DNA of 12,611 nt, from the NCBI GenBank assembly GCA_030141605.1, contig JAQGDQ010002155.1:1-12611 (forward strand), written 5' to 3'. A program made the position numbers and the translations under genes. A model generated the notes under the pieces. That model did no database searches and had not been told where the DNA came from. It was given only the letters and a program-made list of their open reading frames with translations. How positions within the stretch are numbered: the stretch's first letter is position 1; each line of letters begins with the position of its first letter. Of the stretch, positions 300 through 4,684 are shown one piece after another. This stretch comes from Tubiluchus corallicola (taxonomy: Eukaryota > Animalia > Priapulida).

Positions 300-425
300 G
301 CTCCATTTTTCTGGATCCCACGGGAAGAAATGTCCTGTAAATGCAGGTGGTTCAAAACCTTGTTTTATTTTTACTATGACTGTATCCTCAGCTGTGCGTC
401 CACTAGGATCGCTCTCCACGTATTC
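300..425 (-). CDS. VIL1/AVIL-like: Villin/advillin-family internal exon, second half of gelsolin repeat 6: [42 protein letters not shown]
   Basis: 126 nt, phase 0/0, acceptor ctgtttAG and donor GTaagc on the minus strand. The manual translation matches the villin G6 motif (EY..T.PSGRD..TPI..VKQG.EPP.FTG.F..WD..KWS). Confidence 0.93.
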
Positions 426-440
426 CTAAACAGGTAATAG

Positions 441-1660
441 TTATCATTTTCATCGTCACCATCATCATCATTGTCATCGTCATCGTCATTGCCACCACCA
501 CCACCACCTTCATCATCATCATCATCATCATCATCATCATCATCATCATCATCATCATCATCATCATCATCATCATCATCATCATCATCATCATCATCAT
601 CATCATCACCATCACCATCATCACCACCACCGTCATCATCATCATCATCATCATCATCATCATCATCTTCATCATCACAATCACTATCATCACCACCACC
701 GTCATCATCATCATCATCATCATCATCATCATCACCATTATCGTCATCAGCGTCATCATCATCATCATTGCCATTCTCATCATCATCATTATCATCGTCA
801 TCGTCATCGTCATTGCCACCACCACCTTCATCATCATCATCACAGTCAACATCATCATTTCACCATCAGAACCATCATCGTGATTGTTGAGCTCATTTTC
901 ATCATTGTTATTCTCTTCGTAATTATCACCATCACCATCAACATCGTCATCAGCGTCATCGTCATCATCATTGCCATTCTCATCGTCATCATTATTTTCT
1001 CAATCACCACCATTATCGCTACCAACATGATCATCATCTTCATCATCACCATCATTATCATTACTATCATCATCACTGTCAACGTCATCGCCGTTCTCAT
1101 CATCATCATTATTTTCCTAATCATCACCATTATCGCTATCAATCATCATCATCATCATCATCATCATCATCATCATCATCGTCATTATCATTACTATCAT
1201 CATCACTGTCAACGTCATCGCCGTTCTCATCATCACCATTATCGCAATCAATATCATCATCATCATCATCATCATCATCATCATCATCATCATCATCATC
1301 ATCATCATCATCATCATCACTATCATCATCATCATCATCATCATCATCATCATCATTATCGTCATCACCATAATCGTTGCCGTCGTCTTCGTGCTTACCA
1401 TCGTCATCATCATCATCATCATCATCACTATCATCATCATCATCACCATCATCATTATCATCACTATCATCATCATCATCATCATCACCGTCATCATCGT
1501 CATCATCATCATCGTCATCATCACTATTATCATCATCATCATCATCATCATCATCACCATCATCATTATCATCACTATCATCATCATCATCATCATCATC
1601 ATCACCGTCGTCATCGTCATCATCATTATCGTCATTAGCGTCATCGTCATCATCGTCATC
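441..1660. repeat. Long imperfect (CAT/ATG)n microsatellite with internal block duplications, filling most of intron 426-1730
   Basis: Pure CAT runs (e.g. 511-606, 1254-1318) interspersed with CAC/CGT/TAT variants. Diagnostic blocks such as CATCACTGTCAACGTCATCGCCGTTCTCATCATC recur at about 1071 and 1201. Confidence 0.97.
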
Positions 1661-1730
1661 CGCAATTTTAATAACAATTCTTTCAAGGCAGTTCATTACA
1701 GTAGAGATCACGTGAACTTATTAAACTTAC

Positions 1731-1841
1731 CAAAGCCAGTTCCATAGACTCCTGCTTTTCTTTCTCTGTTGCCTGTTCACCAATCCATATTGCAACTTCA
1801 TAATACGTGTCTAACATCATAACATCGTACTCGTTTAGATC
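1731..1841 (-). CDS. VIL1/AVIL-like: Villin/advillin-family internal exon, first half of gelsolin repeat 6: DLNEYDVMMLDTYYEVAIWIGEQATEKEKQESMELAL
   Basis: 111 nt, phase 0/0, with a pyrimidine-rich tract and catctAG acceptor and a GTAAGT donor on the minus strand. Matches the gelsolin-repeat signature DL..DDV.LLD....V..WIG..A...EK. Splices in frame to 425-300. Confidence 0.93.
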
Positions 1842-1925
1842 CTAGATGAACGTACAACAATTAGAGAAAAATTAGAGGAAAGTGAGAGTAAAAACCGTCC
1901 CATCTCTTCCAAATTTGGTGATGTA

Positions 1926-2436
1926 GTGTATGTAGAGGTGTATGTTGTGTATGTAGAGGTGTATGTAGTGAATGTAGATGTGTATGTTGTGTATGTAGAG
2001 GTGTATGGTGTGTATGTAGAGGTGTATGTAGTGTATGTAGACGTGTATGTAGTTTATGTAGACGTGTATGTAGTTTATGTAGACGTGTATGTAGTGTATG
2101 TAGAGGTGTATGTTGTGTATGTAGATGCGTATGTAGTGTATGTAGAGGTGTATGTAGTGTATGTAGACGTGTATGTAGTGTATGTAGACGTGTATGTAGT
2201 TTATGTAGACGTGTATGTAGTTTATGTAGACGTGTATGTAGTTTATGTAGACGTGTATGTAGAGGTGTATGTAGTGTATGTAGAGGTGTATGTTGTGTAT
2301 GTAGAGGTGTATGTAGTGTATGTAGAGGTGTATGTTGTGTATGTAGAGGTGTATGTTGTGTATGTAGTGTATGTAGAGGTGTATGTTGTGTATGTAGAGG
2401 TGTATGTTGTGTATGTAGAGGTGTATGTAGTTTATG
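1926..2436. repeat. 21-bp minisatellite (GTGTATGTAGAG GTGTATGTW), about 24 copies, built from 12-nt and 9-nt GTGTATGTA subunits
   Basis: Direct reading. It explains the YVEVYVV 7-aa periodicity in ORF 1926..2648. Confidence 0.95.
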
Positions 2437-2640
2437 CCGTCGTCATCATCATCATCGTCGTCGTCATTATCACGATCGTTATCATCATCATTATCGCCAT
2501 CATCATCATCATCATCGTCGCCGCCGTGATCGTCATCTTCGCCGTCATCATCATCATAGTCATCATCATCCTCGTCGTTGTCGTCGTTATCATCATCATC
2601 ATCGTCATCATCATCGTGATCGTCATCGTCATCATTACGA
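2437..2640. repeat. Degenerate (CAT/CGT)n microsatellite
   Basis: Direct reading. It abuts the 21-bp minisatellite. Confidence 0.9.
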
Positions 2641-2667
2641 TTTTCTGATTTCAGTTATTAATTTTAT

Positions 2668-2790
2668 CTTTTAATTAATTTAATTTAATTTAATTTTTAT
2701 ATTTGTGTCTCTTGTCACAAAGCTGATTTTAATAATTCAGCATTGTGACCAGAGCTACAAACAACTGGGAATTATTAATAAAAGAAAGTT
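2668..2790 (-). mobile_element. Probable 3' end of a LINE/SINE (CR1/L2-like): stem-loop followed by a (TAAAT)n tail
   Basis: Hairpin at 2709-2754 (CTCTTGTCACAAAGCTGA / TCAGCATTGTGACCAGAG, 16 of 18 paired). On the minus strand it is followed by AAATTAAATTAAATTAAATT (about 2696-2672). Confidence 0.45.
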
Positions 2791-2874
2791 TATCTATGTA
2801 CCCTAATAAGCCTTCTCTTAATGTACAAAGCAGTTCAATTCATTTCACTTTATTTTCAAACACTTAGCTAGTTG

Positions 2875-3031
2875 TTACTGTGTCAATTTTTTTCTACAGG
2901 TCTGCTTAATCATTACGTATTTGACTTTTTGTAAATACATAATTAGTTCATAATTTACTGTATCAATTTCTTCACTGGCCCGTTATTCATTATCTATTTG
3001 GCTTCTGTTAACTACTTGATTAGTGCATAAT
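2875..3031 (+). repeat. Diverged two-copy tandem repeat, period about 80 bp
   Basis: TTACTGTGTCAATTT...AATTAGTTCATAAT (2875-2954) versus TTACTGTATCAATTT...GATTAGTGCATAAT (2955-3031). Confidence 0.7.
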
Positions 3032-3072
3032 AGGCTCTGCCTATATAAACTGGTTGTATGTTTGTAAATTTA

Positions 3073-3114
3073 CCACTGATGATGACAGCAGTAGAAGCCT
3101 GTCGAAACGTTTGG
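3073..3114 (+). ncRNA. Minimal type I hammerhead ribozyme motif (Penelope-like element type)
   Basis: CCA-CTGATGA-T-GACAG(cagtagaagc)CTGTC-GAAA-CG-TT-TGG: intact core, 5-bp stem II, palindromic AACGTT minimal stem III, CCA/TGG stem I. TATATAAA lies about 30 nt upstream. Confidence 0.75.
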
Positions 3115-3498
3115 CATGATTTTAAATTTTTAACAAACTTGTGCTGTTTTTAACTCTAAATATTTTAGATTTATTTTAATTCAATACACACAGTACATAA
3201 TTAGTCCTACGTACATTTACAACACACATAAAAGTTATCGACAAAAATTAAATGTAGTGATAGTGTTTACAACTAAACAAAACTCATTAACCAATATTAA
3301 TTTTAACAATTTTATTTGCATTATAAAACGACGTTAATAATAACGTAGCTTAAAAAAGTTAACCAAATTCATTCATAATAAATTTTAAAAAATTGGAAAA
3401 GTAAAAACGAATTATGTTCAAGAATTTTTAATGCCTTATATTCATGAATATTCATATGATGGCCTAATAGTTAACTAGGCCTAATTTCCAAATTGCAG

Positions 3499-3588
3499 GA
3501 ATTAGCAATTTACAACCAAGAAGAGTGGGCTTACGAAGACTTGTGCAGAAACCCACCCCCAAAAGGTGTTGACGTCACTAAAAAAGAG
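3499..3588 (+). CDS. VIL1/AVIL-like: Villin/advillin-family penultimate exon, N-terminal headpiece: ELAIYNQEEWAYEDLCRNPPPKGVDVTKKE
   Basis: 90 nt, phase 0/0, ttgcAG acceptor and GTaatt donor. P.GVD...KE is the headpiece motif. In frame with 4571-4684. Confidence 0.92.
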
Positions 3589-3727
3589 GTAATTTTTAAT
3601 CGTTTCCATTCGTTCATTTACTAATTTTAATTAGTTTTTTTTATTGTTTATCAATAGTAGAAAAACTGAAAATGCTAGCTTTCGCTTTTTCTAAGCCTTT
3701 TCCCAGTTTTATTGAGCGCATGCGCAG

Positions 3728-4094
3728 TTGCTGCAGGTCAAAGATTAAGTGTAGCACAGCAATGCATCTTAGCTACAAGGGTCAGGCGACATGCGGGTAA
3801 AGCAAAGCCGTCTGCTGCATCAGTTCAGTGCAGTAACTTATGTTGTTTTGCATGGACTTTACAAATTATACATTAGGCCTACTCTGCGCGTAAACTGATA
3901 TACTAGCAGGGTATTGCTTGGGAACAAGAAAAAATGAACTAGTTAAGGTTCTAGCTAGCTGTTAAAACTGTTACTATTACAATAGCTTGTGCTGCGAGGT
4001 GCTGTCAAGTGTTCACAAATGCGTTGTCTGGTTCACTTAACCTTTGACCTTTTCACGATTATCACCAATCGCTGGAACTGTGAAAAGGCTTATT
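3728..4094 (+). mobile_element. Dispersed repeat copy A (MITE-like, with internal inverted repeats AGGTCAAAGRTTAAGTG), inside the last villin intron
   Basis: Aligns by eye over about 350 bp to the reverse complement of 10230-10568. Internal inverted repeats at 3735-3766 and 4018-4050. Confidence 0.75.
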
Positions 4095-4329
4095 GAATTT
4101 AGATTCTTACCAAACAGTTAAAATGTTAGTCATTTAACTGCAAGATTTAGGCTGCAATGCATGCAGTCTAATGCTTGAGTTCAAGGTTCCAATCCCGGTG
4201 TAGGTTTAATGGATGTAAGTGTTGGTGGCTTTTTTCTGTGTTAAATTAACGTTATTTATTTACGAGGTTTGATGTAGTATCGTTTTCGTGACTTTATATG
4301 ACACGATTGCTTTAAACTTACCAAATTGT

Positions 4330-4579
4330 ATATTTATTTTTACATGTATAAAATATTTATACGTACATTTTTACATATGTACACTTACATAAGTTTAAGT
4401 TAAATTATGCTAAATAAAGAGACACTTTTTATATTCACATTACAGGAACACCTAATATTTATTTTTACATACATAAAATATTTATATGTACATTTTTACA
4501 TATGTACACTTACATAAGTTAAAGTAATTTTATGTTAAATAAAGAGAGGCTTTTTCTATTCACATTACAGCAATACCTA
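4330..4579 (+). repeat. 125-bp two-copy tandem duplication covering the last intron's 3' end and the first 9 nt of the terminal exon
   Basis: 4330-4454 versus 4455-4579. The copies end in TATTCACATTACAG|GAACACCTA and TATTCACATTACAG|CAATACCTA. Confidence 0.92.
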
Positions 4580-4684
4580 AGCGAAGAAGAATTCCAGCAA
4601 GTGTTTGGCTTTTCAAAGGACGAATTTAACGCCAAGCCACAGTGGAAGAGAATAGATTTAAAGAAGAAAGTTGGACTATTTTAA
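4571..4684 (+). CDS. VIL1/AVIL-like: Villin/advillin-family terminal coding exon, headpiece C-terminal subdomain (HP35): QYLSEEEFQQVFGFSKDEFNAKPQWKRIDLKKKVGLF*
   Basis: ttacAG acceptor, 37 codons plus TAA. It has the three core Phe residues, P-x-W-K and the terminal LKK..GLF, as in villin HP35 ([35 protein letters not shown]). Confidence 0.96.
   Translation, partial: QYLSEEEFQQVFGFSKDEFNAKPQWKRIDLKKKVGLF

Follow-up and report, generated by a model that had tools for sequence, protein, structure and literature searches.

The 12,611-nt stretch of DNA analyzed here (the window) consists of positions 1–12,611 of the forward strand of contig JAQGDQ010002155.1 from the priapulid Tubiluchus corallicola (assembly GCA_030141605.1). 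It contains four exons that encode the C-terminal part of a villin or advillin, and these exons lie on opposite strands: the two that encode gelsolin repeat 6, G6a and G6b, are on the minus strand, and the two that encode the headpiece, HP1 and HP2, are on the plus strand. The opposed orientation is genuine as far as the sequence goes, but the animal itself probably lacks it. The four exons are as follows.

1731..1841, minus strand: G6a exon (37 codons, phase 0-0), which encodes the beginning of gelsolin repeat 6 of a villin/advillin
300..425, minus strand: G6b exon (42 codons, phase 0-0), which completes gelsolin repeat 6
3499..3588, plus strand: HP1 exon (30 codons, phase 0-0), which encodes the N-terminal half of the villin headpiece; a spliced contig of public run X6 matches precisely this interval
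4571..4684, plus strand: HP2 exon, villin headpiece (VHP) including the stop codon

The lengths of G6a, G6b, HP1, and HP2 are 111, 126, 90, and 114 nt, each divisible by 3, and none of the four translations contains an internal stop. An AG acceptor precedes every exon, and the three internal exons all end at a GTAAG or GTAAT donor. The two introns that can be measured are those between G6a and G6b (1305 nt) and between HP1 and HP2 (982 nt). An earlier interpretation made from the letters of the window (the sequence-only reading) had described these intact phase 0 exons and their canonical splice sites, and its coordinates, strands, and translations were all confirmed. In a Pfam search G6a matched Gelsolin (E 4e-07) and HP2 matched VHP (E 1.5e-18), and G6b and HP1 gave no match. 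The top Protein Data Bank (PDB) matches of G6b are villin chains (best E 8e-12), and those of HP2 are headpieces. Two features of villin and advillin, gelsolin repeat 6 sequence and a C-terminal villin headpiece, are therefore present. A 125-bp tandem duplication (4330–4580, copies 89–90% alike) takes in the region of the HP2 acceptor, and a second acceptor-like site lies near 4446.

The four exons fit a single protein. On the advillin of Aplysia californica (P0006), the closest named relative, G6a corresponds to residues 640–676 (51% identity), G6b to 677–718 (74%), HP1 to 743–771 (50%), and HP2 to 772–808 (57%). Residues 640–718 and 743–808 are tiled without overlap, nothing is represented twice, and between the exons only a linker of 24 residues is missing. 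A profile built from 14 villin-like relatives was compared with 575 six-frame pieces of the window and, apart from a single noise match at E 9, it picked out only the four exons, with E values from 2e-20 to 9e-4; it found a single set of headpiece exons. The same profile recovered the upstream-repeat exons in four intron-containing control loci, and it found no G1–G5 repeat in the window. No linker-like exon was present among 559 open phase 0 candidates in the window bounded by AG and GT, the best of which had a mean score of 21 as compared with 31–85 between true linkers. The claims of the sequence-only reading that no domain occurs twice, and that the window has neither G1–G5 exons on the minus strand nor a linker exon, therefore stand. 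The plus strand from 4685 to 6500 has no AATAAA or ATTAAA polyadenylation signal, which is uninformative. When a full-length villin of the organism itself was sought, no candidate carried the HP1 frame and none of seven candidates passed with the HP2 frame; three matches among 50% representatives were rejected as repetitive proteins unrelated to villin.

From independent DNA contigs, the switch of strand can be placed within about 1870–3104, an interval that is almost entirely tandem and high-copy repeat. A 640-nt contig of DNA run X1 covers 3104–3743 with five differences, which places the switch to the left of 3104 and to the right of the G6a acceptor. The sequence-only reading had put the breakpoint at about 1900–3480; the switch does lie between G6a and HP1, and the right limit moves to 3104. 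The X1 differences listed near the headpiece exons are all in an intron or in the 3' untranslated region, as expected of a working gene. The repeats in and beside this interval are the following.

450..1660, no strand: degenerate (TCA)n array that occupies the G6a-G6b intron
1917..2436, no strand: 21-bp tandem array of ~25 copies; candidate junction where it meets the second TCA array
2443..2635, no strand: another degenerate (TCA)n array, with ~74% similarity to a portion of the one at 450..1660; candidate zone for the junction
2715..3104, no strand: high-copy dispersed repeat with a summed contig depth of 1e5–7e5, as compared with ~180 beside it (run X1); second candidate junction zone

The boundary between the 21-bp array and the second TCA array is a candidate junction because the former ends in the middle of a unit and directly adjoins the latter. 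That the two TCA arrays are one duplicated piece was considered and rejected: they are ~74% alike, and the longest run that they share is 24 letters of plain repeat. Repeats of these kinds are sites both of assembler misjoins and of real inversion breaks. Inverted copies of a dispersed repeat, ~78% alike and probably a transposon remnant, are also present at 3728–4094 and 10230–10568; of these, the one within the HP1-HP2 intron has a very high copy number in the DNA runs.

Four public runs were compared with the window over positions 2640–4885. No run listed as containing the sequence is on record as RNA. One of the four, X6, was included through a species label that it shares with the best-matching DNA run; that it is an RNA run is a guess, and we refer to it as a probable RNA run. 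Record 26 of this run (417 nt) covers exactly 3499–3588, with differences at 5 of the 90 letters (~94% identical in HP1). It continues past 3588, where 9 of 11 letters agree with the beginning of HP2. The 296 nt that precede 3499 in this record fall outside the compared stretch. The last 30 of them differ from the intron of the window at 22 positions, and nowhere in the window do they match with fewer than 11 mismatches in 30. When translated, these 30 letters find their best place in the Aplysia advillin at residues 733–742, directly before the equivalent of HP1 (score 29, next best 13). The headpiece exons are probably joined to a villin-type linker in this one contig, judging from its 30-letter end. 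Since HP1 is spliced there both to HP2 and to a villin-type linker, we assign the headpiece exons to a villin message that is spliced in the ordinary way. An assignment of the headpiece exons to an abLIM or dematin gene was rejected because the peptide spliced upstream is like a villin linker. In an ordinary message the 296 nt would, from lengths, hold a linker of 72–99 nt, the 126 nt of G6b, and part of G6a. The five differences in HP1 indicate that X6 is from another lineage or from a close copy of the gene. In the HP1 codon at 3529–3531, X6 differs at all three letters and X1 and X2 match the window; the species label may cover divergent lineages. No X6 contig was found over the intron at 3165–3464, an absence that argues in neither direction.

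When metagenome contigs were scanned with the Aplysia advillin, 39 related loci were obtained. For a count of collinearity, a G6b match above 40 bits and an HP2 match above 30 bits were both required, and 23 of the 39 were left out. G6b and HP2 are collinear in all 16 loci that have both. Thirteen of these look spliced and are uninformative on DNA order; of the three with introns, two (L026 and L027) look like the same gene. In L031, which is outside the 16, G6b, a separate 72-nt phase 0 linker exon, and HP1 all lie on the same strand, and by its sequence this locus has the exon set that would be expected for the Tubiluchus gene.

A second reversal of strand is found at the right end of the window, where a 311-nt segment is repeated in inverted orientation.

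11013..11323, no strand: left arm of the 311-nt inverted duplication; two substitutions between the arms
12275..12605, no strand: right arm (12275–12585) followed by an exact 25-nt copy (12581–12605) of 9886–9910

Five letters at this junction fit both donors, as in template switching, and the final six letters of the window match neither. When the non-array sequence at the right end (2.8 kb) was shuffled 200 times, not one shuffle contained a direct repeat of even 16 letters. Only 20 letters follow the right arm, and the 25-letter match could be a dispersed repeat. The difference between the arms (2/311) is close to the allele-level difference from X1 (5/640). A review of chimeras formed during amplification describes the inverted type as commonest, with overlaps of 5–8 nt and distances usually <10 kb (PMC9984789). 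By analogy, the fit of the right-end junction to an inverted chimera of this type is suggestive, not proof. The 311-nt arms surround CT and GA tracts. The segment 12124–12274 was considered as a noisy copy of the CT array and rejected, with a score of 79 as compared with 76 ± 11 for two-letter shuffles, 206 of 500 of which scored as high. The window begins inside an AG run (1–33) and ends just past the fold-back junction, as a whole small contig might. Two minisatellite arrays lie between the villin exons and the fold-back, one at 4889–6375 (84 bp, ~18 copies) and the other at 7483–8999 (68 bp, ~23 copies), and the copies are 93–94% alike within each. The 84-bp array begins ~200 nt past the villin stop codon. 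The 68-bp array is bracketed by an inverted pair (7345–7500 and 9062–9226, ~74% alike) that may be the ends of an old element carrying the array.

We infer that both exon pairs belong to one gene and that the backward join between them is an artefact. The most probable explanation, to which we give somewhat better than even chances, is that the locus is a single ordinary villin/advillin gene in which the block containing G6a and G6b was attached in the wrong direction to the headpiece exons; the error would have arisen at a repeat, when the library was prepared or the sequence assembled. The order in the animal would be G6a, G6b, a short linker exon, HP1, and HP2 on one strand, and the gene would be cis-spliced to a normal villin message. 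The false join would lie between ~1870 and 3104, within the 21-bp array, the TCA array, or the high-copy dispersed repeat, and the linker exon and G1–G5 would be to the left of the window or on another contig. A misjoin is supported by the tiling of one protein by the exons, by the lack of any other villin exon in the window, and by the splice from linker to HP1 to HP2 in record 26. It is further supported by the collinearity of the relatives, by a switch interval that is nearly all repeat, by the second strand reversal within the same 12.6 kb, and by the listed X1 differences near the headpiece exons, which avoid coding sequence. If it is correct, the matter is one of curation only, and the villin model at this locus is broken or mis-annotated. 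The sequence-only reading had named a misjoin at repeats as the most mundane of its options, and it is now ranked first; its central claim, of one villin gene with an inverted internal block, agrees with the tiling and with the villin-type linker spliced to the headpiece in the probable RNA run.

Several observations weigh against this explanation. No contig that spans the switch in either orientation was present among the contigs listed for the public runs, where short contigs break at repeats, and the artefact is accordingly probable rather than demonstrated. Repeats favour real inversions as well as misjoins. At the right end, the purine tract inside the fold-back does not demonstrably derive from the CT array, and two substitutions in 311 letters are unexpected from a clean in vitro copy of one molecule and fit two joined alleles or a young real duplication better. 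The comparison with chimeras is an analogy. The place expected for the linker ranked third and was weak in a second relative (P0009), and it was unranked in the remaining four of the six relatives scored; poor agreement outside the Aplysia advillin is compatible with rapid evolution of the linker, though it makes the match a less strong one. The presence of the window's G6b in record 26 is only predicted from lengths, and X6, being from another lineage or a close copy, is silent on the order of the DNA in the individual that was sequenced.

The observations that fit a misjoin at repeats are shared in part by a real inversion allele, a young one in which the G6a-G6b-linker block of the individual or haplotype sequenced was turned around, through either recombination or template switching that involved inverted repeats. 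This is a serious rival, which we consider possible but clearly the less probable of the two. It is consistent with a switch interval filled with repeats and with exons that are all intact, as expected for a recent event, and the right-end fold-back with its 5-letter overlap could equally come from template switching in vivo. The sequence-only reading had foreseen such an allele, with a broken or headpiece-less product. We correct the latter: the acceptors of G6a and HP1 are both phase 0, so the upstream exon would likely be spliced in frame to HP1, and the predicted protein would lose ~103 residues, comprising most of repeat 6 and the linker, and would keep the headpiece. Such an allele would, however, damage a conserved domain, and the linker is joined to HP1, the normal form, in the probable RNA run, though that run is from another lineage. 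It would also be less economical to suppose two separate real rearrangements within 12.6 kb than one poorly assembled stretch. A true inversion allele would provide a natural case in which most of gelsolin repeat 6 is deleted in frame; its interest for the structure and function of villin would be modest.

Two antiparallel villin paralogues interleaved through long introns, with G1–G5 of the minus-strand gene to the right of the window and the repeat 6 and linker exons of the plus-strand gene to the left, are unlikely. The second exon sets could sit beyond the window, and the best-matching relative varies from exon to exon, though by small margins. Against this, introns of >10.7 kb and >3.5 kb would be needed, as compared with 1305 and 982 nt for those measured, and it would have to be a coincidence that the exons seen from two genes are consecutive and non-overlapping in the protein. 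It is highly improbable that the arrangement is real and functional, with full-length villin mRNA made from both strands by trans-splicing or with the block switched by a reversible DNA inversion. The exons on both strands are intact with canonical splice sites, a linker-HP1-HP2 product occurs in the probable RNA run, and trans-splicing between opposite strands is established for mod(mdg4) (PMC4667647). Each message would, however, require two trans-splices, or a separate promoter for the headpiece exons within the repeat stretch, and with one set of 3' exons only no diversity of isoforms would be gained. The relatives are collinear, and no long near-identical inverted pair flanks the block within the window, beyond which its far end lies. 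That the layout is fixed, with villin mRNA trans-spliced into and out of a reversed G6-linker block in a constitutive two-strand cytoskeletal gene that lacks alternative exons, is correspondingly remote. Were it true, its importance would lie in a cross-strand splice that is constitutive in a gene with a single isoform, but nothing found favours trans-splicing over the mundane readings. The paralogue and trans-splicing or switch options, both raised by the sequence-only reading, gained no positive support. The smallest share of the probability is reserved for readings outside those considered.

The locus can be compared with four known systems. In repeat-mediated intragenic inversion alleles, intact exons are flipped and the breakpoints are in introns at repeats; the exons here are likewise intact and, in the sequence, flipped, and the second breakpoint would be outside the window. 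With Drosophila mod(mdg4) the locus shares exons of one protein on opposite strands, here in the sequence as given only. Common 5' exons of mod(mdg4) are joined to one of many alternative 3' exons that have their own promoters, in a layout conserved across insects (PMC4387717, PMC4667647, PMC12692577), and a U1-binding motif is described in the last donor intron (PMC4387717); the corresponding Tubiluchus intron would come after the linker exon, beyond the window. In contrast, the Tubiluchus locus has a single set of 3' exons rather than several alternative sets, an internal block is reversed, and the relatives are collinear. The spliced joints seen here are linker-HP1 and HP1-HP2, and the opposite-strand layout is that of the assembled sequence. 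Among the papers listed in a literature search on trans-splicing of villin, none concerned villin mRNA, to judge from titles and abstract openings. In amplified or long-read libraries, inverted chimeras and misjoins (PMC9984789) similarly link neighbouring segments of opposite strand that lie a short distance apart, and the 5-letter overlap at the right end is of this kind; the overlap can be read here only at that junction and not at the villin junction, and the right-end arms differ at 2 of 311 positions. As compared with villin and advillin genes, the repeat 6 exons face opposite to the headpiece exons and the window is without G1–G5 and the linker exon, whereas the intron positions are those of other animal villin loci and the set of G6b, linker, and HP1 exons is that of L031.

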